DNA of 44,475 nucleotides, from assembly GCA_020047935.1 (NCBI GenBank), contig JAIFNC010000057.1, positions 1 through 44,475 of the forward strand, given 5' to 3'. Made by a program: the position numbers and the translations under genes. Position 1 is the stretch's first letter; every line of letters begins with the position of its first letter. The stretch is from Bacteroidota bacterium. Its GTDB lineage: Bacteria; Bacteroidota; Bacteroidia; Bacteroidales; JAIFNC01. The notes under the pieces were generated by a model. It saw only the letters and a list, made by a program, of their open reading frames with translations, did not search any database and had not been told where the DNA came from. Below, one piece after another: positions 27,011 to 43,702 of this stretch.

Positions 27011-27263
27011 GATAATAATTTTTTTTAGTTGTTTTTATTCTGTTTTAATTATGATACAAAGATAATATATTGATATGACATGTACAAGTAAATTAACTTT
27101 TTTAACAATGTTAAAGATCCAGTTATGAGTTTTATGTACCCCGTCGCCAGGATTAACTAGAAGAAACTCACACCCAGAATTTTAACATATTGGTATTACA
27201 AAAAAAGAAACCCCCAACCATTTCTGACTGAGGATTTCCAGGCAACATATAAAACAACTAAAA
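27011..27263 (-). promoter_or_regulatory. Intergenic regulatory cassette
   Basis: -7 complement 27057-27064. Palindrome 27101-27115. Arms 27119-27133 and 27163-27177. Terminator about 27211-27233. Confidence 0.6.
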
Positions 27264-27854
27264 CTATTTTTCTTCTGGCTCGAGATCTGCAAGAAATTCT
27301 TCTACTGTCGGCAAGTTGTCAAGGTCATACGATTTCATTAATCGTATTGATGCATATTCGGTATCACCTTTAGGTTTATAAAACCGTTCAGTTTCTTCCA
27401 TTGGTGATTTATTAAACCCTTCATACACTTCAAAAGTGTTTTTATCCAGGTCAATAACATAACCATATTCACAAAATAAACTGTCATGTACAAAATCACG
27501 ACTGTCGTGTAACATGATATTTTGATCTTCTGATTCTGCAATTACATTCAAAATGTCGCTGCCGTGGCCACGGGTTAAGTATGGGTATTTTTCGTTATAC
27601 TGTTTGGTTTGTTTGTCATTCATCCAACCATTCTCACATCCGATTGATTTTAAAAATTCTGTAATACCTGTTTCTTCTTCTGGAGTAATAAAATGACACA
27701 CCTTCAATTTTTCCCTTAATTTTTCTAGAATTCCTTTGTGAAGAAATTCCAAAGTAACTACACCGTTGCCACTTGGGTAATGATCCCATTGTCCATACTG
27801 TGCAACGACTGGATTGCCACCTAAAATAACCATTGTTATGCCTCTTGTACCCAT
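27264..27854 (-). CDS. Hypothetical protein (196 aa)
   Basis: Track ORF between promoter elements. Confidence 0.65.
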   Translation of the reverse strand: MGTRGITMVILGGNPVVAQYGQWDHYPSGNGVVTLEFLHKGILEKLREKLKVCHFITPEEETGITEFLKSIGCENGWMNDKQTKQYNEKYPYLTRGHGSDILNVIAESEDQNIMLHDSRDFVHDSLFCEYGYVIDLDKNTFEVYEGFNKSPMEETERFYKPKGDTEYASIRLMKSYDLDNLPTVEEFLADLEPEEK

Positions 27855-27889
27855 GATAATAATTTTTTATTAGTTGTTTTTATATGATA

Positions 27890-27897
27890 CAAAGATA
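27890..27897 (-). promoter_or_regulatory. Stand-alone -7 box for 27264-27854
   Basis: Complement of TATCTTTG. The upstream gene ends only 20 nt away, so there are no arms and no terminator here. Confidence 0.45.
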
Positions 27898-27917
27898 ACA
27901 CATTTATTTGATACTAC

Positions 27918-28250
27918 CTAATTATTTCTAACTTTATCACATTTTTTAACAACCCAATGTGCTAATGCATAACTAGGTTTATAATCCATATTAATAACAC
28001 CCGCATGATTATGGTCGATCCAATCTTTAACCAGTTGATAATAATTTCTTTTATTAGTAACTTGAATTAAATTATAATGTTTCCATGCAATGTCAGGAAC
28101 GTTATTAATCATTGATAACATATTGAATGTATCACAAATGCCAACCCAATCAGGCCCAGTAAGTTTATTAAACGTTTCATTTTGTTTTAAAACCTCGCCA
28201 AAAGTGGCGAGGTCTTTAATGGGTTGTCCCAGTTTATTGTATTTTTCCAT
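27918..28250 (-). CDS. Hypothetical protein (110 aa from MEKYNKL)
   Basis: ATG 28250 follows the upstream stop at 28252 (TAATATG junction). The track start 28289 overlaps the upstream gene. Confidence 0.55.
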   Translation of the reverse strand: MEKYNKLGQPIKDLATFGEVLKQNETFNKLTGPDWVGICDTFNMLSMINNVPDIAWKHYNLIQVTNKRNYYQLVKDWIDHNHAGVINMDYKPSYALAHWVVKKCDKVRNN

Positions 28251-28251
28251 A

Positions 28252-29079
28252 TTAAAACACGTTATTAATGTCGTTATGCTTAATAACAAAGGGCGTTTCA
28301 GGAATAGTGTATTTATTATTTTTCACACTTGATGCCGTCATTTTGAATTTCAGTCCAACAATAACATTTTTTTTGTCGAGGTAACGTGCGTCATACAAAT
28401 CACCGTTAATAACTTCAAACCCGTGATACATTTTTGGTAACAGTTTTTCGAAAACCGCCGCCACTCTAAAACCATTTTTCAATGCTTGTTCACATAGTTT
28501 CCAATTGTAACCGTTATAACTGTATGTTATATCATAGTTGGTATACTTTTTTGAAAGTTCCAACCGATTAAAAACCTTTGTGTAATCATAAAATTGCACA
28601 TCTGGGAATAATTCTAAAATGTTTTTTCCGTTATGTACAAAATCCTCCATACTAATATCAGAAGTTGCATTAATTCTAACAGAAAATTCAAGTCCGTCCA
28701 GTTCCGCTTGTAACCTATGCATTTTAATTTCGGCAATCATCATTTGCATGAAGTAGGTTTTATTCACAAAAAACAATTGTGTTTTTTTAATGCGTGAATT
28801 TATTAATGTACTTTTACCTGCGCCAATTTCCATTCTGGCACGACCACTACCAAATAAACAATGCTCGCGACAATGTTTATCATTGACACATGCTTTAAAA
28901 CCGCTTAAATCAGAACTAGCCAAATAAATAGAATAGGTAGCAACACCATGTACATAACTATGCATAAACTTTGAACTGTGGGCTACATTTCCTAAGTATG
29001 CCACGCCCAACTCTTTTTTCGCTTTGGTTAAACCTTTGTAGGTTAATTTTGATAACTCATCTTTGTTTAATAATAACAT
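28252..29079 (-). CDS. Hypothetical protein with a Cys/His cluster (possibly GP88-like)
   Basis: CVNDKHCREHCLFGSGRA cluster. The family assignment is a weak recollection. Confidence 0.55.
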   Translation of the reverse strand: MLLLNKDELSKLTYKGLTKAKKELGVAYLGNVAHSSKFMHSYVHGVATYSIYLASSDLSGFKACVNDKHCREHCLFGSGRARMEIGAGKSTLINSRIKKTQLFFVNKTYFMQMMIAEIKMHRLQAELDGLEFSVRINATSDISMEDFVHNGKNILELFPDVQFYDYTKVFNRLELSKKYTNYDITYSYNGYNWKLCEQALKNGFRVAAVFEKLLPKMYHGFEVINGDLYDARYLDKKNVIVGLKFKMTASSVKNNKYTIPETPFVIKHNDINNVF

Positions 29080-29114
29080 AATAGTAAATTGTTTTTAGTT
29101 GTTTTTATATGGTA

Positions 29115-29155
29115 CAAAGATAATACTATTATATGAATTATACAATAGTATTATC
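29115..29155 (-). promoter_or_regulatory. Palindrome-type promoter
   Basis: -7 complement 29115-29122, embedded in a perfect 12-bp inverted repeat: GATAATACTATT (29119-29130) and AATAGTATTATC (29144-29155). Confidence 0.5.
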
Positions 29156-29166
29156 GTTAAAGTTAG

Positions 29167-29397
29167 TTAATCGTTTTTAATTCCATAATAAGTAGTTTCA
29201 ATAAATTTATCAACTTCATTTGAAAATTTAGTTACCTCATCTTTGTCATCGGCATCAGGCAAGTCAATGCCTATCATTTCACCAACATAGATTTCATTAA
29301 GATAAATTTCAATGCCGCCACATGATGAGTCTAAATCATAAAAAGATTTACAAGTAAATTCGTCTGTGCCTACTGGAATAATAATAGAATGTTTCAT
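29167..29397 (-). CDS. Hypothetical acidic protein (76 aa)
   Basis: Track ORF preceded by a cassette promoter. Confidence 0.5.
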   Translation of the reverse strand: MKHSIIIPVGTDEFTCKSFYDLDSSCGGIEIYLNEIYVGEMIGIDLPDADDKDEVTKFSNEVDKFIETTYYGIKND

Positions 29398-29685
29398 ACT
29401 GTTTTATTTTTAATTGTTTATACAAAGATAATACTTTTAAACTATTCTACAAAACATTTTATGTTAAAGATTGTTAAAGTGCAATGTTAAAGAGCCAGGT
29501 ATGATTTTTTACCTGCAGGATCGTCTTCAGATCGGATTAGTGTCCACGATCCTTCCTGCGAAAAACTCACAGCAGGCTTTTTAACAATTGGATATATAAG
29601 AAAACCCCAATCATTACTGACTGAGGTTTAATCCACGGCGATACGGTTCACTGTTCCCTTTTACGGTAGTATCTTTTGTGGCCTG
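29398..29685 (-). promoter_or_regulatory. Intergenic regulatory cassette (three direct TGTTAAAG sites)
   Basis: -7 complement 29423-29430. TGTTAAAG at 29462, 29472 and 29485. Arms 29495-29508 and 29563-29576. Terminator 29605-29626. Confidence 0.55.
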
Positions 29686-30231
29686 TTATTTTTCTACCAA
29701 ATCAAAAACCAATTCGGTGTGCTCATTACTGGGTTGGTCATCAGATACGGTAATCACTTCGCCAGCCCAAGAACCGACCAAACCATTTGCATCATCACCA
29801 TAATAATCACCACCGCCACGAGAGTTTGAGTTGCATGTTAGCAAAGGTAGCGGGTGTATACGGTAATCATAAGTATCCGTAGCATCGTTTGGGTTTACCC
29901 ATGTATCAGTAATTGGCACTTTGTCCAAATCAACAAACGATTTTTTGGTTTCGTTAATAAGGAATCGGAAATAATGATTTTCAGTTTCTTCTGGCTCGAT
30001 TTTATTAGACTCATAAGTTTCTGGGTTTACATCACCCTCTTCGGCATAATCGCCGCCCCAAGTTAATGATTGACCAAACCATGCGCCACCTTTGGCGATA
30101 AGTTTTTCTACTAAATTTACATAGTTGTTACCAATCCAACCTGTTTCCATTAATTTTGCTCCATTACCATATTCATGTGGATTTACACACTCATTGAGTT
30201 CTTTAACTCCTGCATTAAAATACTGTCCCAT
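29686..30231 (-). CDS. Hypothetical protein (181 aa)
   Basis: Track ORF between cassettes. Confidence 0.65.
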   Translation of the reverse strand: MGQYFNAGVKELNECVNPHEYGNGAKLMETGWIGNNYVNLVEKLIAKGGAWFGQSLTWGGDYAEEGDVNPETYESNKIEPEETENHYFRFLINETKKSFVDLDKVPITDTWVNPNDATDTYDYRIHPLPLLTCNSNSRGGGDYYGDDANGLVGSWAGEVITVSDDQPSNEHTELVFDLVEK

Positions 30232-30424
30232 AATAATAAGTTTTATTTGTTGTTTTTATATGATACAAAGATAATACTTTTATGTGATGCACACAAGCGT
30301 TTTAACACTTTTAACAATGTTAAAGTTCCAGGCGTGAGTTCATAACCTTCCCGTCGAAAATGTATCCCCCGAGCAAAAAAAACCCACCAGCGAAAAGCCA
30401 GTGGGTATTACACTACCAAATTAT
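30232..30424 (-). promoter_or_regulatory. Intergenic regulatory cassette
   Basis: -7 complement 30266-30273. Palindrome 30310-30324. Arm 30328-30340. Terminator about 30381-30406. The arm and centre are homologous to cassette 24132-24338. Confidence 0.6.
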
Positions 30425-30667
30425 TTATGTCGACCAGTTTAAAAAAAACTCTAATTGATTAGTCGTGTCAATAAAATAACCATCATCAAGATAATTATTT
30501 ATGTCTTCCTCGTCATACCCAACACAATTTTTTATGCTGTCAATAAAATACTTTTCAGATTTTAAAACTGCAGTATCTTTTTCGTTGGTGTCAGATATTT
30601 TAAATATGAATGATTTAACCTCATCAAGTGATCCAGCCTTAAATCGTATTACATTTATTACTTGCAT
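30425..30667 (-). CDS. Hypothetical protein (80 aa)
   Basis: Track ORF, 1 nt after the upstream stop. Confidence 0.5.
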   Translation of the reverse strand: MQVINVIRFKAGSLDEVKSFIFKISDTNEKDTAVLKSEKYFIDSIKNCVGYDEEDINNYLDDGYFIDTTNQLEFFLNWST

Positions 30668-30668
30668 A

Positions 30669-31511
30669 TTATTCTTTAGTTATTTTAGTTAATGTACATT
30701 CTAATCTGCGTTTTTGTAGTTTTTTAATATAAGTATTACCTTCTTTTTCTGTCAAAAACTGTTTACCAGGGTATCCGCCATACATAACATATTTGTACCC
30801 AGTTTTAGTTAATTTAACCAAATAACCACCATTAGATAATTTAATTTGAAATGATTCTTTAGTATCGTTAAGTAACTTAATTTTTTCATTACGTTGATTA
30901 TATCGTTTAACCGCATTAGTGAATTTATCACCTTTAAGTTTACTAGAAACATAATCAGTATTATAACCTAAACTTATTGTCGATTTTATATCAGTGTGTT
31001 TATAAAATTCGGTTATCTCATCAATTGCATTGAATAAATCATCAGTGGTAGTAACATTAATCATTTTTCTTTCGATATTACTATCATAACTAATATAACT
31101 ATTATTCACACAAACTGTAATACCTAAGTTAGTTAACTCTTCAACTGTTTTAGCACGTTTACACCCATTTTTGAAAAAATTCGTAAATTCTTTATAACTA
31201 CCAAAATTGCTCATAAACTTTAAACCGATATAACTGCCAAATTGGTCATCAGTATAATTGCTAGTGCCATCATCATTTAGATAACGTGTTTTGTTTTGGG
31301 TATTCATGTATTCCGCAACGTTAAGCATTTCGTTTAACGTGCCATAAAGTTTACCATTAGTCATATAGTAATACGGAAACCAATCACGCGAACGTCTTTC
31401 GCGTCCATTTACAAATACGGTGCAATTATTACTGCCAGATAATATCATTGGAACAAAATTGTCTTCATTCACTTTGATAAATTGTTTGTAATAAATAATT
31501 TCGTGGCTCAT
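30669..31511 (-). CDS. Hypothetical protein (280 aa)
   Basis: Track ORF. Confidence 0.65.
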   Translation of the reverse strand: MSHEIIYYKQFIKVNEDNFVPMILSGSNNCTVFVNGRERRSRDWFPYYYMTNGKLYGTLNEMLNVAEYMNTQNKTRYLNDDGTSNYTDDQFGSYIGLKFMSNFGSYKEFTNFFKNGCKRAKTVEELTNLGITVCVNNSYISYDSNIERKMINVTTTDDLFNAIDEITEFYKHTDIKSTISLGYNTDYVSSKLKGDKFTNAVKRYNQRNEKIKLLNDTKESFQIKLSNGGYLVKLTKTGYKYVMYGGYPGKQFLTEKEGNTYIKKLQKRRLECTLTKITKE

Positions 31512-31512
31512 A

Positions 31513-31677
31513 TTATTCTACTTTTAGATTATATTCTTGTTTCATCCAATCGCCAAAATCTGGTTCGGTTATTTCATCAACCTCATCCATATCCATATCA
31601 ATGCAGTTTTTTTCAAAACGTTCGCCAGCAAGAAATGCGTTACGCATGTCTTCGTCTGTAAATAAATTCTTTGCCAT
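31513..31677 (-). CDS. Hypothetical acidic protein (54 aa), my own ORF call
   Basis: MAKNLFTDEDMRNAFLAGERFEKN... TAATATG junction with the next gene. Confidence 0.4.
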   Translation of the reverse strand: MAKNLFTDEDMRNAFLAGERFEKNCIDMDMDEVDEITEPDFGDWMKQEYNLKVE

Positions 31678-31681
31678 AACG

Positions 31682-31957
31682 TTAAATTTTTATTTTAAGT
31701 AAATACTCTTTGTTACCTCTAGTAATAATTTTACATACTTCACCTTTAGAGTTAAGTTTATAAAAATCCAAAATATCATAACCTGCATATTTTTTTAAAT
31801 CACTTTTAGAAAATTCTTTGCAGTGCTCCAAAACATCAGTAGGATTATGCAATAAATGTTTTAATATAGATGCTTTAATTGCACCTCTATCAAACTTTTC
31901 AAACCACTCAATAACAGTTTCACTGTTTTGACTAAATAATAAATGTTTTAATACCAT
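31682..31957 (-). CDS. Hypothetical protein (91 aa)
   Basis: Track ORF preceded by a cassette promoter. Confidence 0.5.
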   Translation of the reverse strand: MVLKHLLFSQNSETVIEWFEKFDRGAIKASILKHLLHNPTDVLEHCKEFSKSDLKKYAGYDILDFYKLNSKGEVCKIITRGNKEYLLKIKI

Positions 31958-32162
31958 TGTCGTATTGTTTTAATTTGTTACATACAAAGATAATACTTTT
32001 CTATAACATACACAAGCATTTTAACATTTTTAACATTGTTAAAGTCCCAGTTATGAGTTTCTTCCTGAAGTATCCTGGCGACGGGAAGGTTTGAAACTCA
32101 CAACCAGCATTTTAACATTTCATTTTACCGCACAAAAAAAGGGGAAATAAATCCCCTCTTAA
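31958..32162 (-). promoter_or_regulatory. Intergenic regulatory cassette
   Basis: -7 complement 31985-31992. Palindrome 32029-32043. Arms 32046-32060 and 32093-32108. Terminator GGGGA/TCCCC 32141-32156. Confidence 0.6.
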
Positions 32163-32792
32163 TTATTCTATTGTACTGTTTTGGTCGAATGGTTCATCCT
32201 CGTCATCACATTCTTCTGCATATTTTGCTTGTTGTTCATCCCAATCCAATTCCATATTACAAATTTCGGGAGTACCATCATTGTCTCTGACAGTACTTGC
32301 AATTCCACAAAAACAACAGCCAGGTTCGCTGTATTCCATAACAAAACTCAATTCGGGAAATTTCTCTTGTACATACATCAACCAAGTAATAGGTGGCGTC
32401 CATGCTGTGGTCATATAGAATTTAATTTCACCATGCGCATCACTTTCAACATATTGAATATCATAAAAATCGGCACTCCATTTCGTACCCCAGTAAGTGG
32501 AACACCAATCATACCAACCGACAACACCAAATTCTTTTAATTGCTGTACTGCAATCTCGGGGAAATCTTCTGGGTGGTTTGTGGTATCAGCAGCTTTGAT
32601 AATGTCAGGTTTTGGATAATACACCTCGATTGATAATTTCTTATCTTGAGGTAAATTATCAGTGTCAGTCTCAATATCGACTGTTTTCTCAGGTAACACA
32701 TATTCGGGGTTTTTAATTCCGAATCTTAAAAACTCTCTGGTTTTTTCTTTTTTACCTGTAATAACAATTTTATTAAAAGTCCAATTTGGCAT
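32163..32792 (-). CDS. DUF1281-like protein (MPNW...WGTKW...TAWTPP pattern)
   Basis: MPNWTFNKIVITG, YWGTKWSADF, MTTAWTPPITW. The family name is from memory. Confidence 0.5.
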   Translation of the reverse strand: MPNWTFNKIVITGKKEKTREFLRFGIKNPEYVLPEKTVDIETDTDNLPQDKKLSIEVYYPKPDIIKAADTTNHPEDFPEIAVQQLKEFGVVGWYDWCSTYWGTKWSADFYDIQYVESDAHGEIKFYMTTAWTPPITWLMYVQEKFPELSFVMEYSEPGCCFCGIASTVRDNDGTPEICNMELDWDEQQAKYAEECDDEDEPFDQNSTIE

Positions 32793-33292: not shown

Positions 33293-33503
33293 AATACTAT
33301 TATTTTTAATTGTTTATACAAAGATAAAACATTTGTATCACATATACAAGCATATTAACATTTTTAACAATGTTAAAGTTCCAGGTGTGAGTTTTACCCG
33401 TGTCTTCTAGGGTATTTTTATTTCGATAGGTTTTGGTAGTATTACGCGCAACAAAAACCCCACCGAATAAACTGTGAAGTTTTCGTTGTAATACTATTAC
33501 TTA
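33293..33503 (-). promoter_or_regulatory. Intergenic regulatory cassette
   Basis: -7 complement 33319-33326. Palindrome 33363-33377. Arm 33381-33394. Weak terminator about 33456-33480. Confidence 0.55.
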
Positions 33504-33626: not shown

Positions 33627-33632
33627 TTTTTA

Positions 33633-33914: not shown

Positions 33915-34131
33915 ACTGAATTATTTTATACAAAGATAATACATTTACTTATACTACACAAGCGTTTTAACACTTTTAACATTGTTAATGTGCCAGCTGT
34001 GAGTTTCTTCTAGCTACCCTCTTCAGATCCAGTCAGAAAATTCCGAGATCCTTCCAGGCATAAAACTCACAACCAGCATTTTAACATATACATATACAGA
34101 AAACCCCCGACTGTTATGCCGAGGGTTTAAC
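33915..34131 (-). promoter_or_regulatory. Intergenic regulatory cassette (56-nt centre family)
   Basis: -7 complement 33931-33938. Palindrome 33975-33989. Arms 33993-34006 and 34063-34077. Terminator about 34104-34125. Confidence 0.65.
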
Positions 34132-34460: not shown

Positions 34461-34700
34461 ACTAAATAATTTTTAATTGTTTATACAAAGATAATACTTT
34501 TATATCACCCGCACAAGCATTTTAACACTTTTAACATTGTTAATGACCCAGTTATGAGTTTCTTCTAGCTACCCTCTTCAGATCCAGAAAGAAATTTCCG
34601 AGAGTCTTCCAGGCGGGCCACAGGTATAAACTCACAACCAGCATTTTAACATATCAAGGTATAAAAAAATTGAACCTCCGCTGAGTAATCAGCGGAGGTT
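34461..34700 (-). promoter_or_regulatory. Intergenic regulatory cassette
   Basis: -7 complement 34486-34493. Palindrome 34530-34544. Arms 34547-34561 and 34628-34642. Perfect 12-bp terminator stem aacctccgctga (34673-34684) / tcagcggaggtt (34689-34700). Confidence 0.65.
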
Positions 34701-34913
34701 CGTTCATAATGTCGGGGGGATTCTACTACATTTTTCTAGAATAACGGAGGATACTATTCCCACAACGGTTTGGTCATAACCCGCAAACGAGCCGAAAATG
34801 TTCTAACGGCGGACGAGTGACAGCGGAGGTCATATCTAATGTATACCAATCGGAAAAGGTAAACCTCATTAACGGTTACTTTCATCTACCGATTTGATAA
34901 TACAACATTATTT
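34701..34913 (-). other. GC-rich ORF-poor island (candidate structured RNA or foreign fragment)
   Basis: 56 of 120 positions are G+C in 34741-34860 by hand count, in an otherwise AT-rich window. Only a 43-codon Arg-rich ORF is present. CCTCCG occurs three times in the minus sense. Confidence 0.3.
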
Positions 34914-35048: not shown

Positions 35049-35128
35049 ATCATTTAGTTATTTCGTAAAGTTCCTCTTCAACTTCCTTTAATAATTCCAT
35101 AAGTTCATTAACACCACTTTCAAAGATA

Positions 35129-35335
35129 TTAAAACGGTTCAGTACCAATAAATGTAATACTTTTAGTAATACGATTATATTTGTAAACCAAATAATCATC
35201 AGACATAAAAAAACTATCAAATATCTGGATTTCAATTTCCTCAGCACCTTTAGTAATTAACAAATAGTCAATGGTATCAATAATTTCTTTTTTTAATTCG
35301 TCAACCTTAGTTGACATTATTTCAGTTATTTTCAT
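35129..35335 (-). CDS. Hypothetical protein (68 aa)
   Basis: Its start overlaps the upstream stop by 4 nt. Confidence 0.5.
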   Translation of the reverse strand: MKITEIMSTKVDELKKEIIDTIDYLLITKGAEEIEIQIFDSFFMSDDYLVYKYNRITKSITFIGTEPF

Positions 35336-35927: not shown

Positions 35928-36170
35928 ACTGTATTGTTTTAAATGTTACATACAAAGATAATAAAATGTATTGATATAACAAAGTTTTTTGTGTTAAAAT
36001 AACATAATATCATATGTTAATGTTCCAGCTGTGAGTTTCTTCTGGCGTGCGCCTGGCGGGCCACAGGGATAAACTCACAACCCGCATTTTAACATATCAT
36101 GGAATAAAAAAAAGAAACCCCCAGCCATTTCTGACTGGAAGTTTCACCAAACAATTAAAACAACAATTTA
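35928..36170 (-). promoter_or_regulatory. Intergenic regulatory cassette
   Basis: -7 complement 35953-35960. Arms 36025-36038 and 36071-36085. Terminator about 36118-36140. Confidence 0.55.
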
Positions 36171-36686: not shown

Positions 36687-36694
36687 TGTTGATA

Positions 36695-36746: not shown

Positions 36747-36869
36747 TATTTTATTAATGTACCTTTTTTAAACAATTTAGTATAAGAGGTTACATTCGGA
36801 TAAGGAATTTCATCCTTTGTCCAAGTATCATTGTTTACCTTTGTAAAATCAATGTTTCTACTGCCATAA

Positions 36870-37091: not shown

Positions 37092-37329
37092 AATATCATT
37101 CTTTTAATTGTTTATACAAAGATAATACTATTATATCACATATACAAGTGTTTTAACATTTTTAACATTGTTAATTATCCAGTTATGAGTTTTTCCTGAA
37201 GACGGATACTTCAGATCGGAATGGTGTCCACGATCCTTCCCTGAACTAAAACTCGCACCCAGCGTTTTAACATATCACGCCATAAAAAAACCCAATCATT
37301 TCTGACTGGGTTTTCAATTTGTTATAATT
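37092..37329 (-). promoter_or_regulatory. Intergenic regulatory cassette
   Basis: -7 complement 37117-37124. Palindrome 37161-37175. Arms 37179-37192 and 37249-37263. Terminator 37291-37310. The centre is homologous to cassette 29398-29685. Confidence 0.6.
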
Positions 37330-38109
37330 TTAGTTTACGGATTTCATAAACGATGGTGAGTTACCGTATAAAGGAGAATGTCCATCCCATTTTTCAATAA
37401 ACATTTGTTGTATGATTAATGGTGTCAATGTTTGTTGTTTAATTTTATTGGCTTCAGCCTCACCTCGGGCTTTGGTTACAGCAATCTCGGCATCGGCTCT
37501 TGTGCTACGAAGTTCATTCTCTTTTTGTTGTGCAAGTTGTACCGCGTTATTCTTAGCTTCAATACCTTTAGTCACACTGGCGGGATATCTCAAACCGAAT
37601 GTTAGAGGTCCAATTTCAAAACCCTCCTTTTCCAATTCTTTAGTTAATATAACCGTAACTTTTTTATCAAATTCAACACGTTTGGATAAAATATCATCAG
37701 TCGTATATTCGTTAAACACATTTTTAAACACATCCTTAACATAAGTTAATAAAATAGTTTGTCTAAGTTCCTCAATATCCTTTCGATACTTTATGAAAAT
37801 TTCGGGACTTTTACCTGCTTTAACACGAAAATTTAACATCGGGTCAACATAGAATACACTACCATCTTTGGCATTCACACTAAATGCTTCATAATCGGCT
37901 GTCTGATAAAATATAGGAAATTCCTCAACATCCTCGGTCCACGGATTATACCACACACGGCCAGTAACTAATGATGCCATTTGAACACCCTTATCAGAAC
38001 CGTACTGTTTCACTAAAATACCCTCGTACCCACCACCAATACGTTTTGTACATGAAGTAAAACTCATAGTTGCTACAGCAACCAATAAAAATAAAATCAC
38101 GTTTTTCAT
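37330..38109 (-). CDS. SPFH/Band-7 domain lipoprotein
   Basis: Signal peptide and lipobox MKNVILFLLVAVATMSFTSC. Then GYEGILVKQYG...TGRVWYNPWTE, typical of the SPFH N-terminus, and a coiled-coil-like C-terminal region. Confidence 0.6.
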   Translation of the reverse strand: MKNVILFLLVAVATMSFTSCTKRIGGGYEGILVKQYGSDKGVQMASLVTGRVWYNPWTEDVEEFPIFYQTADYEAFSVNAKDGSVFYVDPMLNFRVKAGKSPEIFIKYRKDIEELRQTILLTYVKDVFKNVFNEYTTDDILSKRVEFDKKVTVILTKELEKEGFEIGPLTFGLRYPASVTKGIEAKNNAVQLAQQKENELRSTRADAEIAVTKARGEAEANKIKQQTLTPLIIQQMFIEKWDGHSPLYGNSPSFMKSVN

Positions 38110-38318
38110 TTTGTTTTAAAAATTTTTATTATATAATTGATTAAAAAATAATTCCCAATAATAAAACCACTGATACCAATAACACCCACTAATACCGCAA
38201 TATCTGATGCCGTACTAACTAGCGATAACACACCATTGATATATAAAAATTCCATCAATAGTAATACGGGCAAAACTGCAATTAATATGATAATTTTATG
38301 TAAAATACTTTTTTCCAT
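38106..38318 (-). CDS. Small 2-TM membrane protein (70 aa from MEKSIL)
   Basis: ATGA overlap with the SPFH gene. The track start 38345 reads into the -7 box at 38343-38350. Confidence 0.5.
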   Translation of the reverse strand: MEKSILHKIIILIAVLPVLLLMEFLYINGVLSLVSTASDIAVLVGVIGISGFIIGNYFLINYIIKIFKTK

Positions 38319-38342
38319 TTTTTTATGTTTTAATTTATGATA

Positions 38343-38350
38343 CAAAGATA
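38343..38350 (-). promoter_or_regulatory. -7 box for the membrane/SPFH pair
   Basis: Complement of TATCTTTG. Confidence 0.45.
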
Positions 38351-38384
38351 ATACATTTATTTGATAAATACAAATGTTATTGTG

Positions 38385-38711
38385 TTAAACAATTTTACCC
38401 TCCAAAATTAATAATTTTTTATATTCACGAAACTGCACTAATTTACGTGCCTTTGATTGAATTTTGTAAAATTCTTCCTCTGTCATTTCGTTAAACTCAA
38501 GTAAATCATTATCTATTGTTTTAAAAAGTTCAATACCTTTAACCACATCATCACGTTTCTCTTTAACATACAATTCTAGTTCCTCATGTGTCCCCTCTTT
38601 AATTACATCAACATTATTAAATGTACCTGAATAACCACCGCCAAAACCCTCAGAACCATAACTTGGGCTGACTTGTATCTTTTCTACTTTAATTCCTACT
38701 AAGATTGACAT
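38385..38711 (-). CDS. Hypothetical protein (108 aa from MSILVGI)
   Basis: The track start 38789 reads through the promoter (-7 complement 38738-38745). ATG 38711 is preferred. Confidence 0.55.
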   Translation of the reverse strand: MSILVGIKVEKIQVSPSYGSEGFGGGYSGTFNNVDVIKEGTHEELELYVKEKRDDVVKGIELFKTIDNDLLEFNEMTEEEFYKIQSKARKLVQFREYKKLLILEGKIV

Positions 38712-38950
38712 AATACTATTGTTTTTAATTGTTTCTACAAAGATAATACTATTATATTGAATAAACAAGCATATTAACATTTTTAACATTGTTAAAGTTC
38801 CAGGTGTGAGTTTCTTCTAGCTACCCTCTTCAGATCCAGTCAGAAAATTCCGAGAACCTTCCAGGTATAAAACTCACAACCAGCGTTTTAACATATCAAG
38901 AAATAAAAAAAGGGGAAATAAATCCCCTCTTTTTAAATCCACCTGATAGG
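38712..38950 (-). promoter_or_regulatory. Intergenic regulatory cassette (56-nt centre family)
   Basis: -7 complement 38738-38745. Palindrome 38782-38796. Arms 38800-38813 and 38870-38884. Terminator 38912-38927. Confidence 0.65.
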
Positions 38951-39307
38951 TTATTTACATTTATCCGAAATAAAATCGGTATAAACCTCATCCATTGACA
39001 TAAACAGGCTGTTTGGCCGTCTGCGGTCGCCAGTTTTCAATTCGTAATATCCAGCCCCTTTTACTCCATCGGGGAAATAACGATACGATGTGAGCGGGTA
39101 CGAAACGTTTGGATGCTTTTCGTTAAATTCGGTTACAGACATTTTGACGGGTAACGACATAAGGTAATTTTTATCACCGATTTTTGTCATCACTAAACCA
39201 GATGCGGCACTATTCAAGTATTTTTCTTCGTATTGACGAACTGCGCGATAAGCTGCCGAAGATGAACGAAATGAACGAGGGAATTTTTTTACTTCTTTTG
39301 TTTCCAT
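38951..39307 (-). CDS. Hypothetical protein (118 aa)
   Basis: Track ORF between cassettes. Confidence 0.6.
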   Translation of the reverse strand: METKEVKKFPRSFRSSSAAYRAVRQYEEKYLNSAASGLVMTKIGDKNYLMSLPVKMSVTEFNEKHPNVSYPLTSYRYFPDGVKGAGYYELKTGDRRRPNSLFMSMDEVYTDFISDKCK

Positions 39308-39724
39308 AATTGTAAATTTTATTTATTGTTTTAATTCTGATACAAAGATAATACATTAATACCAATTGCACAAGCATTTTAACACTTTTAACATTGTTAA
39401 TGAGCCTGTTATGAGTTTGTAATACCTTCCAGTATTCTTCCAGTATTCTTCCAGTATTCTTCCAGTATTCTTCCAGTATTCTTCCAGTATTCTTCCAGTA
39501 TTCCTACTAAACTCACAGACAGCGTTTTAACATATCGTAATACAGAAAACCCCGCGTTTCACAACGCAGGGAACTCTTAATTTAACAATTTAACTATGGA
39601 CAAACCGTTCAATGAAACTCACACAAATATATACAAGTACCAATTTCCTAATTCAACGATTACCGCAATTTTTAAACTTTCGTTTCAAATTGTCTTACAT
39701 AATATCCAAAGGAGAAAATTCGGA
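39308..39724 (-). promoter_or_regulatory. Intergenic regulatory cassette whose centre is an 11-bp tandem array
   Basis: -7 complement 39343-39350. Palindrome 39387-39401. Arms 39408-39421 and 39512-39526. Terminator 39553-39574. Confidence 0.6.
39430..39506. repeat. Perfect tandem repeat, 7 x 11 bp (TTCCAGTATTC)
   Basis: Units start at 39430, 39441, 39452, 39463, 39474, 39485 and 39496, each checked base by base. Confidence 0.95.
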
Positions 39725-40327
39725 CTAACGTAGCCCTATCCCGAACGCTGATTCAAGTTCTATTTTTAATTTTTCTATAATATCTTTGTCAATGTTGTCT
39801 GACATACCATTTTTCCAAATGTTATCGCCATAAAAACCCCAGCAACTATCTGTCATTTCATCATCAACATAAACTTCAAATCCGTACACATCACCAGTAA
39901 GATATTGGTCGTATGTTTCAACTTCGGCGTTTAAATTTTCAACCGCCTTGTCATACCATTTTTTTGTACAGTATTTAATGTTGAAAGTTTTTTTCATCAT
40001 TTCCTTTGTAATGATTGCGAACCCAACTTGCCCGCTATCCCATTTACAACTGAAAGAACTTGTTGAAATTGTAATGCCCGAGTGGTCATATAAATATAAG
40101 GGCATAATCACAATCGGTTTTTCATTTCGGATAATATCCGCCTTCATTTCCTCCCAATTATTATTATCATGGAAATTATAATCATGTTTATCGCCCAAAT
40201 TATATCTTGAATGAAAACATATCATTTTAACTATGTTGCCATCGGTATAATCTAAATCGCGAGGACTTTGTGCATTTTCGTCTTGAATAATTTCTAAACG
40301 AATGTTGTCTTTTTTAATTGTTGTCAT
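39725..40327 (-). CDS. Hypothetical protein (200 aa)
   Basis: Track ORF between cassettes. Carries an LYLYDHSGITIS motif; family not recalled. Confidence 0.65.
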   Translation of the reverse strand: MTTIKKDNIRLEIIQDENAQSPRDLDYTDGNIVKMICFHSRYNLGDKHDYNFHDNNNWEEMKADIIRNEKPIVIMPLYLYDHSGITISTSSFSCKWDSGQVGFAIITKEMMKKTFNIKYCTKKWYDKAVENLNAEVETYDQYLTGDVYGFEVYVDDEMTDSCWGFYGDNIWKNGMSDNIDKDIIEKLKIELESAFGIGLR

Positions 40328-40586
40328 AATAGTGTTGTTTTAAATTGTTATACAAAGATAATACATTTACTTATACTACACAAGTGTTTTAACACTTTTA
40401 ACATTGTTAATGACCCAGTTATGAGTTTCTTCTAGCTACCCTCTTCAGATCCAGTCAGAAAATTCCGAGACCCTTCCAGGCATAAAACTCACAAACAGCG
40501 TTTTAACATATCGTAATACAGAAAAACCCACGTTTCACAACGTAGGTAATTCTTTGTCTGAACTATATCAAAAACCAAATATAAAT
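40328..40586 (-). promoter_or_regulatory. Intergenic regulatory cassette (56-nt centre family)
   Basis: -7 complement 40353-40360. Palindrome 40397-40411. Arms 40415-40428 and 40485-40499. Terminator 40527-40546. Confidence 0.65.
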
Positions 40587-40946
40587 TTAACCGTTTATTT
40601 TATTAACAAGTATTGACAAATTTCCGAGCAATTCCACATAAGTTTTACCACTTGTGAAAATTTTGTTATACTCATCACATATCCAATTTTTACAACGATA
40701 ACCACGTCTTTTTGCTGTTGTATGTATGATACAATAAATGAAGTCCCTTTCAGTATTCGGATACATTTGTCCCGAAATGAAAATCTTTCGTTCACCTAAT
40801 ATACGTACTAAATCTTTACTGTTACCCTCTCTGAAAAGTCTTTCTGCCTCTTTTTTAATACCATGTATAGTACCGATATTTGTAACATCAAAAGTGAAAT
40901 CACTTAGAAGTACTTTAATTTCCTTAATAAATTCTACTTGATTCAT
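40587..40946 (-). CDS. Hypothetical protein (119 aa from MNQVEF)
   Basis: The track start 40985 reads through the promoter (-7 complement 40972-40979). Confidence 0.55.
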   Translation of the reverse strand: MNQVEFIKEIKVLLSDFTFDVTNIGTIHGIKKEAERLFREGNSKDLVRILGERKIFISGQMYPNTERDFIYCIIHTTAKRRGYRCKNWICDEYNKIFTSGKTYVELLGNLSILVNKING

Positions 40947-41204
40947 ATTGCCTATTTTTAAATTGTTTACACAAAGATAATACATTTATATGTACTACAC
41001 AAGCATTTTAACATTTTTAACATTGTTAATGATCCAGTTATGAGTTTCTTCTGACGCGAGCCTGGTGAATCAAGAATCTTCCCAGGCAAATTCTAGCAGA
41101 AACTCACAAACAGCGTTTTAACACTTTGTAATACCATATAAAAAACCCCCGACTGTTAAGCCGAGGGTTGAAAAGACTGTACCGCTCCAATGTGTACTAC
41201 ATCT
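40947..41204 (-). promoter_or_regulatory. Intergenic regulatory cassette
   Basis: -7 complement 40972-40979. Palindrome 41016-41030. Arms 41034-41047 and 41100-41114. Terminator about 41146-41168. Confidence 0.6.
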
Positions 41205-41570
41205 TTATTTCCAGCCGTATTCCTTTTTAACAGTTGCCTCGTAATTGTCAGTCTTTTCTACATAACTGTCAATTCGGTCTGTTAACTCATCACAGTAAAC
41301 CATTTCTAATGTTTCTTTAATCTCACATTTATAATCTAACAAATACACGGTATATGTATCGTTATAGTCTAATGTGATTAACACATAACCTTTGTGCTTA
41401 AATCCTGATACCTTGAACAATAAACCTTTACCCTGAAAATTAACATAATCTCTTGCTCCCCAGCTCATTAAAATGCTAACACCACCAGCCCGAAGCTGTA
41501 ACAAAGTTTCTTGTGCATTGAGAACGTCTTTCAATAACGACTCAATTTTTTTTACATTTTCGCTTGTCAT
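41205..41570 (-). CDS. Hypothetical protein (121 aa)
   Basis: Track ORF between cassettes. Confidence 0.6.
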   Translation of the reverse strand: MTSENVKKIESLLKDVLNAQETLLQLRAGGVSILMSWGARDYVNFQGKGLLFKVSGFKHKGYVLITLDYNDTYTVYLLDYKCEIKETLEMVYCDELTDRIDSYVEKTDNYEATVKKEYGWK

Positions 41571-41846
41571 AATACTATTGTTTTAAATTGTTATACAAAG
41601 ATAATACTTTTATATCACCCGCACAAGCATTTTAACACTTTTAACATTGTTAATGACCCAGTTATGAGTTTCTTCTAGCGACCCTCTTCAGATCCAGTCA
41701 GAAAATTCCGAGACCCTTCCAGGCATAAAACTCACAACCAGCATTTTAACATTTCATATAACCACACAAAAAAGGGGCGAACCTAAATCCACCCCTCAAA
41801 ACACTTTGAAACTAAATGAAAAGTAACAAAGAGCAAACAACTTATA
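41571..41846 (-). promoter_or_regulatory. Intergenic regulatory cassette (56-nt centre family)
   Basis: -7 complement 41596-41603. Palindrome 41640-41654. Arms 41658-41671 and 41728-41742. Terminator 41774-41795. 41591-41697 matches 34481-34587 at 106/107 positions. Confidence 0.65.
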
Positions 41847-42161
41847 TTAAAGTACCTTAACTATTTCTTTTAATTTATTATGAAAATCGGTGAAATCTTT
41901 TAGACTTTCACTAATAGTGAAATTATCTTTATATTCTTTACTTTGTCTGTGTAAATCAATTTGCTCATCAACATCAAACTCATTAACATATTTTTTAAAT
42001 TCTACTTTTTTAAACGGTAATAAACCTATAATCATGTCCACACCGCCAGCTGTCCACATTTCCAACTCTGAACATTGTTCATTGTCTTGCTCAAACAAAA
42101 ATACCTTAAATCCTACTTCTTCAAAGAATTTAACTAATTCATCACTTGACATTTTTGACAT
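41847..42161 (-). CDS. Hypothetical protein (104 aa)
   Basis: Track ORF between cassettes. Confidence 0.6.
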   Translation of the reverse strand: MSKMSSDELVKFFEEVGFKVFLFEQDNEQCSELEMWTAGGVDMIIGLLPFKKVEFKKYVNEFDVDEQIDLHRQSKEYKDNFTISESLKDFTDFHNKLKEIVKVL

Positions 42162-42428
42162 AATAATATAGTTTTAAATTGTTATACAAAGATAATACTA
42201 TTATATCAATTGCACAAGCATTTAATGTTAAAAAAATGTAATACCAAATGTTAATGCGCCTTCTGTGAGTTTCTTCTGGTTGCCACACGGGGTGAGCTGA
42301 CGAAGCCTGTCGTCTCCCAGCTCAGGACGACTGCTGAACTCACAACCAGCATTTTAACACTTTGTAATACCACATAAAAAAAGAGTGGTACTAATTCCAC
42401 TCTTCCCTAAATAATATATAACACGTTT
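42162..42428 (-). promoter_or_regulatory. Intergenic regulatory cassette with a GC-rich hairpin centre
   Basis: -7 complement 42188-42195. Arms 42264-42273 and 42337-42351. Internal hairpin 42295-42324. Terminator 42383-42404. Confidence 0.55.
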
Positions 42429-42632
42429 TTATTCCCTTTTCTTTTTTTCGTAAAACAGTTGAACGTAATGTATGGAAACCACAGTTATAACCCAATAAAG
42501 TATTATACTAACATCTTTTCTCATTCCATCATATTGACAATACAACATTAAATAAGCCATCAACATTATGAATAAAATCATAGGTATTAAACACCCCAAA
42601 AATAACAATATGTTAAATCTTCTCTTTTCCAT
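42429..42632 (-). CDS. Small 2-TM membrane protein (67 aa)
   Basis: Two hydrophobic helices and a basic C-terminus. Confidence 0.5.
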   Translation of the reverse strand: MEKRRFNILLFLGCLIPMILFIMLMAYLMLYCQYDGMRKDVSIILYWVITVVSIHYVQLFYEKKKRE

Positions 42633-42635
42633 AAC

Positions 42636-42830
42636 TTAATCAAATAACGTGTGTACCTTACTAATACCAATGATTGTTAATAAAACACCCATAATTATCA
42701 ATATAATACCCGATAAACCTTGTAATGCCGTGGCATTATATAACCCAATAAATACATTGTAGGTATGAAATGATATGTTAATCACCAAAATTAAACATAC
42801 GATAACTGTTAAAATCTTTTTTGAATCCAT
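42636..42830 (-). CDS. Small 2-TM membrane protein (64 aa)
   Basis: Two hydrophobic helices. Confidence 0.5.
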   Translation of the reverse strand: MDSKKILTVIVCLILVINISFHTYNVFIGLYNATALQGLSGIILIIMGVLLTIIGISKVHTLFD

Positions 42831-43065
42831 AATGATATAATTTTTAATTGTTTCGACAAAGATACGGCAATAAGGTTATACTGCAAAATTTATTATGTTA
42901 AAGTTTGTAATACCAATTGTTAATGCGCCTTCTGTGAGTTCTACATGAAACCACAAACATGAAACATTTTTTTATCTCGACAAACTCACACACGGGCCTT
43001 AACATATCAACATACGAAAAACCCCCGACTGTTAAGACGAGGGTCAATTCCATATTCATATCATC
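42831..43065 (-). promoter_or_regulatory. Intergenic regulatory cassette (CGACAAAGATACGG subfamily)
   Basis: -7 complement 42857-42864. Arms 42932-42940 and 42982-42996. Terminator 43022-43043. Its first ~140 nt are near-identical to 43343-43480. Confidence 0.6.
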
Positions 43066-43329
43066 CTACTTTCGGTAAAACTCAATATATGTTAAATCCT
43101 TTGTATATTTTACTCTCAATTCCGAACCCAAACCCCAATAAACACCTCCTCTGTCATAAGCCCCGTTCATCGGTACTCGACAATCAAAGACTGTCTTCTG
43201 GTCACATTTACATATACGATTATTACGACCTCTAGTAATCGTATGAGGAAATTCACCCACGTTATTACGACCCATTGGCGCTCCGTACTTTGTTGATACA
43301 TTTGTGATAATTTTGTCTAGCGTTCTCAT
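43066..43329 (-). CDS. Hypothetical protein (87 aa from MRTLDK)
   Basis: The track start 43368 reads through the promoter (-7 complement 43355-43362). Confidence 0.55.
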   Translation of the reverse strand: MRTLDKIITNVSTKYGAPMGRNNVGEFPHTITRGRNNRICKCDQKTVFDCRVPMNGAYDRGGVYWGLGSELRVKYTKDLTYIEFYRK

Positions 43330-43702
43330 ATTGCATATTTTTAAATTGTTTCGACAAAGATACGGCAATAAGGTTATACTGCAAAATTTATTATGTTAAA
43401 GTTTGTGATGCCAATTGTTAATGAGCCTTCTGTGAGTTCTACATGAAACCACAAACATGAAACATTTTTTTATCACCCCCAAATGGTTTAACACTTTTTA
43501 TCTCGACAAACTCACACACGGGCCCTTAACATTGTTAAAATATGCTAACGCAAATGCTAATTTAACTTTCCCGAAAATGCTAAAGTTTATTAATAATATG
43601 TAATTTATCGGTTTACCTATTGTAGATATGAAAAATACATACTATCTTTGTCGAAACAATTCCAAAAACAAGTAATAATAACAATTTAACAATTTTGTGA
43701 AA
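43330..43702. promoter_or_regulatory. Divergent promoter / strand-switch region
   Basis: Minus-strand -7 complement 43355-43362. Arms 43432-43440 and 43508-43522. TTAACATTGTTAA 43526-43538. AATGCTAA three times (43542-43583). Plus-strand TATCTTTG 43643-43650. Confidence 0.6.

Follow-up and report, generated by a model that had tools for sequence, protein, structure and literature searches.

Organization of the locus

The window, i.e. the whole stretch of 44,475 nt that was analysed, comes from a large, uncultured Bacteroidota phage and displays its hyperplastic early-gene region, in which small ORFan genes form promoter-gene-terminator cassettes. An imperfect inverted repeat is located among these small early genes, after a terminator and before the next promoter. 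There are 16 full copies of the repeat and at least six half copies, the latter near positions 20627, 24224, 26325, 30334, 33389 and 44316. Fifteen of the full copies span positions 27109–43531 and lie in the range of a preliminary description of this DNA, which placed the arms correctly and whose hand-counted centre lengths differ from the measured values by only 1–2 nt; the additional copy, at 21203–21268, is outside of that range. A full copy consists of an outer helix of 6 bp (TGTTAA/TTAACA), an internal loop, an inner helix of 14 bp and a variable centre of 18–90 nt, and the hairpins are 65–140 nt in size. The full hairpins are as follows, with in-range centres measured between GAGTTT and AAACTC.

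21203–21268, minus strand: 18-nt centre, outside the earlier range, z −8.5
27109–27187, minus strand: 31-nt centre, in inverted orientation compared with copy 32037 and with the orthologous half site of a relative (L021)
29485–29586, minus strand: 54-nt centre, family 2; degenerate 3′ arm (AAAATCA)
32037–32117, minus strand: 33-nt centre
33983–34086, minus strand: 56-nt centre family; best pairing among the copies, MFE −38.8, z −5.3
34538–34651, minus strand: 66-nt centre, a variant of the 56-nt family
36015–36094, minus strand: 32-nt centre
37169–37272, minus strand: 56-nt centre, family 2; GCGAGTTT in the 5′ arm
38790–38893, minus strand: 56-nt centre family
39395–39532, minus strand: 90-nt centre of seven tandem 11-nt units
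40405–40508, minus strand: 56-nt centre family
41024–41123, minus strand: 52-nt centre
41648–41751, minus strand: 56-nt centre family
42249–42359, minus strand: 63-nt centre
42918–43005, minus strand: 40-nt AT-rich centre, part of a 498-nt tandem duplication
43416–43531, minus strand: 68-nt centre, the duplicate of copy 42918 plus an insertion

The 11-nt unit in copy 39395–39532 reads CTTCCAGTATT on the plus strand and its tandem array is at positions 39426–39503. Pairing in the stem is ungapped, extrahelical bases are absent and no copy shows variation in the inner 7 bp of either arm. The internal loop, first described as 2 nt, has this size in some copies only and is 4×4 nt in most; one consistent plus-strand G·T sits within it. 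The hairpin is flanked by a perfect 13-nt palindrome, TTAACAWTGTTAA, with 17 occurrences against 0.03 expected, which by itself excludes chance as the source of the repeat. By hand measurement of one copy, the palindrome centre is near −60 of the promoter. This fixed palindrome beside the hairpin is a plausible candidate for a duplex protein site.

Half elements, terminators and promoters

20624–20659, minus strand: half element, terminator-side arm, then the 13-nt palindrome
24220–24254, minus strand: half element, promoter-side arm and the TTAACAATGTTAA palindrome
26322–26357, minus strand: half element, terminator-side (sense 5′) arm; adjoins terminator 26359–26396
30311–30345, minus strand: half element, promoter-side (sense 3′) arm and centre remnant; abuts terminator 30382–30406
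33364–33400, minus strand: half element, promoter-side arm alone
40960–40991, minus strand: representative promoter of the Bacteroidota type, 3′ of the hairpin; sense TATTATCTTTGTRT, −7 box TAnnTTTG
41144–41169, minus strand: representative intrinsic terminator, directly 5′ (sense) of hairpin 41024–41123

Equivalent terminators are found before other hairpins, e.g. at 27206–27239, 29602–29629, 34672–34701, 36114–36145, 38904–38935, 39550–39571, 40526–40547 and 41772–41797, and a scan gives 31 terminators where 7.4 are expected. Promoter boxes of the TAnnTTTG type number 21 within 26–44.4 kb. Above 19 kb the promoter scan gives 27 promoters, ten of which have neither terminator nor arms and two of which have a half element only. 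The statement that the element lies between each terminator and promoter was therefore too broad, although arms do accompany terminators. Of the 17 arm-bearing promoters, 14 have a terminator called by the scan; two of the others have one according to other analyses, and for the last (33317) a terminator is suggested by the sequence. None of the ten promoters that lack a terminator has arms. Thus the arms, which are positioned downstream of strong intrinsic terminators, occur exclusively where a terminator is present.

The half elements segregate either with the terminator or with the promoter. The hairpin is the junction of two cassettes: its 5′ half (TGTTAA..CTGGTTGTGAGTTT) is part of the terminator end of the upstream cassette and its 3′ half (AAACTCAYAACTGG..TTAACA) is part of the promoter end of the downstream cassette.

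Strand-specific pairing

Twenty copies, from the window and two relatives, provide 400 pair cells, of which 320 are Watson-Crick, 43 are G·U in the sense strand, 4 are A·C and 33 are transversion mismatches. The excess of G·U over A·C rests on about five variable positions in copies related by descent and represents roughly 8–10 independent events. At three positions (20, 21 and 25) the A-U, G·U and G-C states are all seen. Paired cells amount to 91.8% as compared with 87.7% in shuffles, and none of 500 shuffles reaches the observed value; slid-register controls are 31–45% paired. The covariation score is 0.171 versus 0.095. The long outer helix of L021 displays compensatory double changes.

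Folding favors the sense strand in 13 of 16 copies, with a mean z of about −3.3. The mean energy with RNA parameters is −28.9 kcal/mol for the sense and −22.0 kcal/mol for the antisense strand; with DNA parameters the values are −12.4 and −10.2, a small strand difference of 2.2 kcal/mol. Base composition does not explain the G·U bias because the sense strand is G-rich and not T-rich, and the composition skew is both too small and of the wrong kind. Selection for pairing in one strand, the gene-sense strand, is supported. The preliminary description had proposed such a one-strand bias, which proves stronger than claimed; the arm differences that it noted for copy 33993 versus copy 40415 indeed leave the bases paired, as wobbles.

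The invariant inner 7 bp of both arms, the lineage-specific arm sequences, which recall co-evolving repressor-operator pairs, and the frequent palindrome near −60 would also be expected of duplex DNA sites for a regulator of the phage early promoters, e.g. a shut-off repressor or an activator, with the arms and the neighboring palindrome as operators and the centre as a looped-out spacer. Mycobacteriophage stoperators are single asymmetric 13–14-bp duplex repressor sites. Stoperators and the ESAS repeats of mycobacteriophages resemble the present element in that many lineage-specific short sites are found in the intergenic gaps of one phage, with orientation tied to transcription, but stoperators have no hairpin, variable centre or wobble bias. 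Operators are quite improbable here. The arm spacing is 18–90 bp in the window and 0 to about 80 bp in sister lineages, a variability that disfavors a simple dimeric site, as was argued earlier; the arms follow terminators rather than promoters, and ten promoters are without them. In addition, duplex binding gives no cause for the strand-specific 43:4 wobble bias.

Related phages and cassette shuffling

Related aquatic phage contigs of 147–315 kb have kept the layout of terminator, inverted repeat and promoter. With different arms, it recurs among approximately 80 related loci, and arms could be typed in at least 26. Arm sequences are lineage-specific, and in the sister lineages, where gene orientation is the same, the G·U bias is absent. 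Arm types C, G and H are unbiased and have fixed transversion mismatches; thus RNA pairing is not demonstrable for the element class as a whole.

The homology blocks between the window and one relative (L017) are units of promoter and gene, with or without the terminator, and these are reordered. This shuffling of cassette order indicates that the element has a DNA-level recombination side as well. The centres also show rearrangement. The 56-nt centre family and the 29503/37187 pair, both previously proposed, are confirmed. The centres of copies 27127 and 32055 have an exact inverted match of 14 nt, and the orthologous L021 site has the orientation opposite to that of the 27127 centre, so that inversions are seen both among copies and at orthologous loci. 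Because it works both ways round, the centre carries no oriented RNA signal. The 11-nt repeat varies in number from sample to sample: four assemblies that are otherwise identical there have 7, 7, 3 and 6 copies. The hairpin marks sites of cassette inversion, truncation and reshuffling.

Such rearrangement could come about passively if the cassettes recombine by ordinary homologous recombination, as the PeSLs (promoter-early stem-loops) of T4 do. In that case the inverted repeat itself would serve no function, being a MITE-like palindrome or one homogenised by gene conversion, and the strand bias would be inherited from a single founder copy. Intergenic blocks of 109–195 nt with 60–100% identity (each copy compared to a reference copy) flank unrelated genes, a 498-nt segment is tandemly duplicated and half copies are common. 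Even phages with 82% DNA identity in their DUF932 genes differ in arm type, hence turnover is rapid. A passive repeat is nevertheless unlikely. Across lineages with approximately 50% identical DUF932 proteins the inverted repeat is kept at the exact place while its sequence is replaced, and a founder copy cannot yield A-U, G·U and G-C at the same positions with A·C almost absent. The compensatory double changes in L021 also speak against a passive repeat. Inspection revealed no target-site duplication flanking the element.

Possible function and comparison with known systems

The explanation we prefer, at a probability of about 45%, is a cassette junction of the PeSL-like type; its hairpin would be under selection in the single-stranded sense form, most likely in read-through RNA, and the junction would also be a recombination hotspot. 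When RNA polymerase reads through the terminator, the sense-strand hairpin would form in the RNA, most likely the selected form. Its two-helix stem, approximately 24 bp with an internal loop, may then serve as a fail-safe that directs processing, affects stability or insulates neighboring strong promoters from each other; it is a candidate substrate of an RNase III-type enzyme, or a phage-specific factor may bind to it. In the DNA itself, recombination between the arms and within the centre could produce inversions, half sites, changes in repeat number and cassette reordering, and arms that are uniform within a genome and different between lineages may reflect concerted evolution.

The folded RNA proposed earlier is thus supported in part, by the selected pairing in the gene-sense strand. 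However, little RNA may cover the hairpin because the upstream terminators look efficient. A generic RNase III site is also weakened, as such recognition needs neither invariant inner pairs nor lineage-specific arms; these two properties suggest a partner that recognizes a specific sequence, or concerted evolution, rather than generic double-stranded RNA.

In T4-type phages, PeSLs are regulatory cassettes that are mobile (Arbiol et al. 2010, PMC2839356; Comeau et al. 2014, PMC4122927). In both systems a terminator and a strong host-type promoter with an AT-rich upstream part form a repeated composite, the modules border small ORFans within an early region that is hyperplastic, and breakpoints of indels, replacements and reordering between relatives fall in the modules. 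The PeSL stem-loop is the terminator itself, whereas here an extra two-helix hairpin of 65–140 nt, with a hypervariable loop, strand-specific pairing and lineage-specific arms, is located between terminator and promoter, and the promoters have the TAnnTTTG box typical of Bacteroidota. The junction hairpin elaborates an already known kind of phage regulatory cassette.

Phage T7 early genes have RNase III processing hairpins, with proven cleavage, at gene boundaries. These are likewise intergenic, occur at many boundaries of an early region and have about two helical turns with an internal loop. Unlike the present element, a cleavage candidate only, the T7 sites have small loops, are not repeats of one sequence and are within one long transcript that has no terminator or promoter per boundary.

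Attachment sites of integrons (attC) are likewise imperfect inverted repeats at the boundaries of gene cassettes. An unpaired spacer separates their outer box from the inner one, the terminal structure is very variable in length, and one strand folds better than the other (PMC5027507). The imperfect inverted repeats that bound the cassettes here have a similar anatomy, with a terminal structure of 18–90 nt and better folding of one strand. The element may thus be a structure-specific single-stranded DNA recombination site, like attC or an HUH/Y1 hairpin: the sense strand would fold when single-stranded in replication or recombination, and an arm-specific phage recombinase or nuclease would excise, insert or invert promoter-ORFan-terminator cassettes. 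Half sites at cassette ends, inverted centres and shuffled cassettes are consistent with this, as is a strand-specific loop motif of the sister lineages, GTAT(T/G)AC (29 sense versus 4 antisense in 87 loops). Arms that are uniform per genome and differ by lineage are a further parallel, since attC sites show the same behavior in sedentary chromosomal integrons. We nevertheless consider such a site rather unlikely. The GTT and AAC boxes are in the order opposite to attC, extrahelical bases are lacking, each cassette has its own promoter and terminator, the host is a lytic-type large phage, and the strand difference with DNA parameters is small. No IntI-type integrase was seen in the window, and the scanned window open reading frames (most of those ≥100 aa) include no tyrosine recombinase or HUH nuclease; the sole recombinase found among them, an IS607-type serine recombinase, is far from the array.

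Correia (CREE/nemis) elements of Neisseria and REPINs of Pseudomonas are short multicopy intergenic inverted repeats, and the Correia elements can contain promoters, while RNase III binds or cuts them (PMC2649163, PMC3116915). They share with the present element a high copy number, arms that form long hairpins in transcripts (predicted here) and internal parts that vary in length. Those elements are mobile in chromosomes and come with target duplications or with a cognate RAYT transposase, neither of which was found here, whereas the phage element is locked to the gap between terminator and promoter.

Hairpin copies and their anatomy

The arms reported in the preliminary description, which was made from the sequence alone, are present. 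They form an imperfect inverted repeat around a variable centre, between a terminator and the next promoter. Fifteen full copies fall in the range described earlier and one more is at positions 21203-21268, and half copies are found near 20627, 24224, 26325, 30334, 33389 and 44316. On the sense strand, i.e. the minus strand of the window, which is the gene strand of the cassettes (promoter-gene-terminator units), the order is terminator, T-run, about 10-20 nt, TGTTAA, 4 nt, CTGGTTGTGAGTTT and the centre, followed by AAACTCAYAACTGG, 4 nt, TTAACA(W)TGTTAA, a -33 element and the -7 box. The outer boxes read 5'-TGTTAA ... TTAACA-3' on either strand, with GTT first and AAC last. A symmetric internal loop of 2-4 nt lies between the 6-bp and 14-bp helices, and the arms pair ungapped and without bulges. 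The inner seven base pairs (TGAGTTT/AAACTCA) are invariant. This includes the copies of L021, a related phage locus with 52% identity to the window in its DUF932 protein.

Centres of the 15 in-range copies measure 31-90 nt, at most 1-2 nt off the lengths first listed, and the centre of copy 21203-21268 is 18 nt; the terminal part therefore spans 18-90 nt. Both proposed centre families were recovered, i.e. a 56-nt family with four copies and one 66-nt variant, and a second family (29503/37187). The centre families display no kinship with each other.

The window contains 17 occurrences of a perfect 13-bp palindrome, TTAACAWTGTTAA, vs 0.03 expected, e.g. at 27102-27114, 33976-33988 and 40398-40410. 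One half of it contributes a strand to the hairpin's outer helix. In the one copy measured by hand, the palindrome has its centre near -60 of the promoter; in three copies it is on the terminator side instead. It is a candidate operator or UP-like site, and a duplex operator role suits it better than it suits the neighbouring arms.

Strand-specific pairing

The joined arm regions of 16 window copies, three copies from L021 and one from L023, another related locus, were scored as a two-helix structure. In this set, where copies in one genome are a non-independent sample and window-type arms come from three lineages only (the window with near-identical assemblies, L021 and L023), 91.8% of cells are paired vs 87.7% in shuffles, a value reached by none of 500 shuffles. 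The covariation score is 0.171 vs 0.095, and both-side changes are found at six pairs of the stem. Pairing falls to 31-45% when the partner strand is shifted by 1-3 columns.

The one-strand bias claimed earlier holds in the full mismatch count of the 20 copies. The non-Watson-Crick cells comprise 43 G·U (sense), 4 A·C and 33 transversions; An equal frequency of G·U and A·C would have spoken against the bias; G·U is far commoner. Position 20 displays C-G (5), U·G (12) and U-A (1), position 21 A-U (3), G·U (11) and G-C (1), and position 25 A-U (2), G·U (11) and G-C (6). Such states would be expected along a stepwise path of selected pairing in a strand that tolerates G·U. Mutational strand bias, as a sufficient source of the G·U excess, is ruled out by composition and by sister lineages. 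The sense strand has an excess of G (skew about +0.2) but not of T, thus composition is unable to yield a 10:1 ratio. Sister-lineage arms in the same orientation do not show the bias, e.g. arms of type C have 14 G·U vs 16 A·C.

With RNA parameters the mean folding energy is -28.9 kcal/mol for the sense strand vs -22.0 for the antisense, the sense strand is better in 13 of 16 copies, and z-scores reach -8.5. With DNA parameters the gap between strands is only 2.2 kcal/mol, but the sign is unchanged and the sense strand is again better in 13/16. At the level of sequence there is clear evidence that the hairpin has been selected in single-stranded form, in one lineage.

Terminators, promoters and cassette boundaries

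The window has 31 terminator-like sites vs 7.4 expected (four-fold), and the strong ones are found on the gene strand directly 5' (sense) of the hairpins. Near-identical -7 boxes (sense TATTATCTTTGTA) number 21, and the parts upstream of them are rich in TGTTAA. These are predicted promoters, and by their TAnnTTTG -7 box they are of the Bacteroidota type. Each cassette has a promoter of its own.

A scan places 27 promoters above 19 kb. Arms accompany 17 of these, and a terminator was called at 14 of the 17; at two of the remaining three the terminator was placed by separate analyses, and at the third (33317) it is suggested by a GC-rich stretch alone. The 10 promoters without a terminator are all without arms. 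The hairpin is thus tied to the terminator, i.e. to the cassette boundary, and not to the promoter itself. Half elements occur singly in L021, the 5' half after terminators and the 3' half before promoters, including sites that adjoin opposite-strand genes or an extra gene.

Gene content and source of the window

The window is an entire metagenome contig of 44,475 bp and is AT-rich (G+C 27-33%). It has PHROG matches and encodes DNA methyltransferases.

Features of the window outside the hairpins
3529-4188, minus strand: IS607-type serine recombinase (MerR-like HTH and resolvase domain), upstream of the cassette array
4910-5239, minus strand: small ORF of 109 aa, match to T4 major capsid protein Gp23 (E 2e-08)
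5713-6489, minus strand: Thg1-family tRNA-His guanylyltransferase, upstream of the cassette array
9301-14977: minimal type I CRISPR-Cas locus, phage-borne (two ORFs without Pfam match, Cas6-like ORF, array, Cas3)
11245-11949: Cas6-like ORF
12051-12635: CRISPR array, 9 repeats of a 36-nt unit ACTGTATCTTATCCAATTCCGCAAGGGAATCACAAC, spacers about 30 nt
12623-14977: Cas3 HD-helicase, following the array
17624-19111: N6-methyltransferase ORF, borderline match to an Eco57I-family domain

From 19 to 44 kb there is a series of small minus-strand genes, mostly ORFans; a Pfam scan gave no match for most of the small genes. No cas1 or cas2 was seen at the CRISPR-Cas locus, and no structural module or tRNA was found within the window. 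A link of the hairpin to the CRISPR was considered and rejected, as the repeat and the Cas6-like gene are unrelated in sequence to the arms (compared by eye only).

The small ORF at 4910-5239 aligns solely with the N-terminus of Gp23, at profile positions 4-43 of 376 (the first ~40). The match may reflect a remote relationship to T4-type phages or the capture of a fragment, and it is the single hint of membership in the T4-type myoviruses. Among GenBank phages no cultured relative was found; there is no DNA match and DUF932 protein identity is below 30%. DUF932 homologues led to about 80 related loci from aquatic metagenomes, several of them on contigs of 147-315 kb, e.g. L017 (ERZ4201038 NODE_14, 251 kb), L032 (Ga0209990_10000005, 288 kb) and L094 (315 kb). 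From the phage-type matches, the lack of a cultured GenBank relative and the size of these contigs, the source of the window is an uncultured large phage. It may be related to the 'moraphage' lineage of aquatic Bacteroidota, with genomes of 200-307 kb, described in a paper that does not mention such repeats (PMC12619734).

Over 14.7 kb the window and the JGI contig L014 differ by only one substitution and one 1-nt indel. Both are at 35127-35131, within or adjoining small ORFs at 35050-35335.

Comparison with known elements and possible function

Among known systems, the layout most resembles the PeSL cassettes of T4-type phages; these combine a terminator and a promoter in one module, flank ORFans and bring about modular shuffling (PMC2839356, PMC4122927). 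As in these, there is a predicted strong early promoter of host-sigma type with an AT-rich upstream part that is repeated many times, together with an adjacent terminator-like stem-loop. The modules also lie on either side of ORFans, the region is hyperplastic, and the breakpoints between relatives fall at cassettes. Unlike PeSLs, the window has a long hairpin between terminator and promoter, and this addition is what is new.

Selection on a single-stranded, sense-strand hairpin fits best with the wobble pattern, the freedom of loop length and the link to terminators. The most natural form to be selected would be a read-through RNA, in which the hairpin might serve as a fail-safe signal for processing or insulation. 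RNase III sites have ~20 bp or more of dsRNA, often with an internal loop, and the predicted sense fold agrees with this, as an internal loop separates its helices of 6 bp and 14-17 bp (stem of about 32 bp in L021). The hairpin sits downstream of terminators. The preliminary description had proposed that the element is probably a folded RNA in read-through transcripts, e.g. an RNase III-type processing or stability site. Single-strand selection on the sense strand stands (43 G·U:4 A·C, better folds in 13/16), and the RNase III-type role is plausible as judged from geometry.

Other candidates were considered. Rfam gave no match at gathering thresholds in the whole window, and chance-level matches only at E up to 10 in 26-44.5 kb. 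A hammerhead-like reading of the 56-nt centre (CUGAAGA...GAAAC) was rejected, as stem II cannot form. A leading-region single-stranded DNA promoter (Frpo-like) does not agree with the structure: the better-pairing strand is the sense and not the template strand, and the promoters are outside the stem. In comparison with MITE and Correia elements, the arms could play the role of terminal inverted repeats. By eye no flanking direct duplication (target site) is seen around the arms, and the window has no transposase besides the IS607-type serine recombinase.

Arms and loops in related lineages

Related loci keep the layout of terminator, inverted repeat and promoter, but the arm sequences are entirely different.

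Arm types of sister lineages
Type C: GTCAAACCGCAAT; L017, L022, L062, L064
Type G: TTGTTTTGGCAGT; L099, L102
Type H: ATTTGWTTGGCA; L029, L037, L038, L086 and others

In all three types the loops are AT-rich and 0-80 nt long, and GC-rich variable segments are outside the arms, not between them. These flanks were tried as a continuation of the stem; pairing in ungapped register was at background level. L017 is a close relative and carries type C arms, not the window type, thus arms are kept uniform inside one genome and are replaced from one genome to the next. An invariant inner stem, together with arms that differ by lineage, suggests concerted evolution or a partner that is sequence-specific. 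Window-type arms are absent from the further DUF932 relatives L224, L225, L226 and L020, the hairpin element is absent from IMG/VR and GenBank phages, and three DNA-pattern scans of sequence collections for more copies gave chance matches only.

An unbiased k-mer test of 332 intergenic regions (the window and L017-L103) gave GTATTAC/GTATGAC as the top strand-specific motif, with 80 regions vs 14 expected and 17 for the reverse complement. The form (T/C)GTAT(T/G)ACA is the most enriched 6-7-mer of the cassettes and is strand-specific. In sister-lineage loops GTAT(T/G)AC is found in 29 of 87 in the sense orientation vs 4 antisense. In the window the motif (e.g. 39425, 39543, 40519, 41134 and 42370) flanks several hairpins and terminates the centre of copy 39413 (39395..39532). 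We take it to be reminiscent of the loop nick motifs of HUH Rep proteins.

CTGAAG is present in 51 and CTTCAG in 33 related intergenic regions vs about 10 and 8 expected; examples in the window are centres such as 34021 and 40443. Centres as clusters of restriction/methylation palindromes (GATC, CCWGG etc.) were rejected: in the 332 regions 6-mer palindromes number 721 vs 822 in shuffles, and GATC 176 vs 168.

Centre variation and cassette exchange

A 14-nt exact match is found between the centre of copy 27127 (27109..27187) and the reverse complement of the centre of copy 32055 (32037..32117). The orthologous half site in L021 has the same centre sequence as 27127 joined to the other arm, thus centres flip between the arms. 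The 90-nt centre of copy 39413 consists of seven 11-nt units, and four independent assemblies have 7, 7, 3 and 6 units; in L015 and L016 the number of units is the sole difference across about 2 kb. Intergenic blocks of 109-195 nt that contain the hairpin and promoter have, per copy, 60-100% identity to a reference copy, and the adjoining genes are unrelated. Between the window and L017 (DUF932 82% identical, DNA), homology is in blocks of promoter and gene, in some cases with the terminator, and the order of blocks is different. L021 has an additional gene adjoining a half element.

The anatomy of the hairpin brings to mind integron attC sites, which have an outer box, unpaired spacer, inner box and variable terminal structure, with one strand favoured (PMC5027507). 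The window hairpin also has an unpaired central spacer and a variable terminal structure. However, attC outer boxes are 5'-RYYYAAC ... GTTRRRY-3', in that order (PMC5027507), and the box order of the hairpin is the opposite; its arms have no extrahelical bases. In addition, integron cassettes are promoterless, whereas every window cassette is self-promoted. No tyrosine recombinase (IntI) was found among the scanned ORFs of the window, whose 44 kb are part of a genome probably >200 kb in size (roughly 250).

It is conceivable, but rather improbable, that this clade of large aquatic Bacteroidota phages runs an integron-like system of its own. Self-expressed promoter-ORFan-terminator cassettes would be bounded by DNA hairpins that fold in one strand, with lineage-specific arms and loops that sometimes carry the strand-specific GTAT(T/G)AC. 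Cutting and rejoining would be done by a structure-specific recombinase or HUH-type nuclease of the phage itself, resulting in capture, inversion and reshuffling of early and anti-defence genes.

Early regions of large phages have the fastest turnover of anti-defence and host-takeover genes. To our knowledge, the insulation and exchange of these early genes is understood in detail solely for the T4-type PeSLs. In the uncultured clade, with its Bacteroidota phage contigs of 147-315 kb, the junction is more elaborate and consists of terminator, lineage-specific hairpin and promoter. Should the hairpin prove to be a signal for RNA processing or insulation, it would be a part that Bacteroidota synthetic biology could reuse and a metagenome marker of early-gene cassettes; should it prove to be a site of DNA recombination, it would represent a new gene-cassette system in viruses. 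Under any reading the arms offer an easy sequence tag by which cassette boundaries can be found and these phages typed.

A 140-nt block is found at 42837-42976 and 43335-43474 with 96% identity and a spacing of 498 nt, thus the last two cassettes arose by a recent tandem duplication. In the second of them the hairpin centre has grown by insertion, from 40 to 68 nt.
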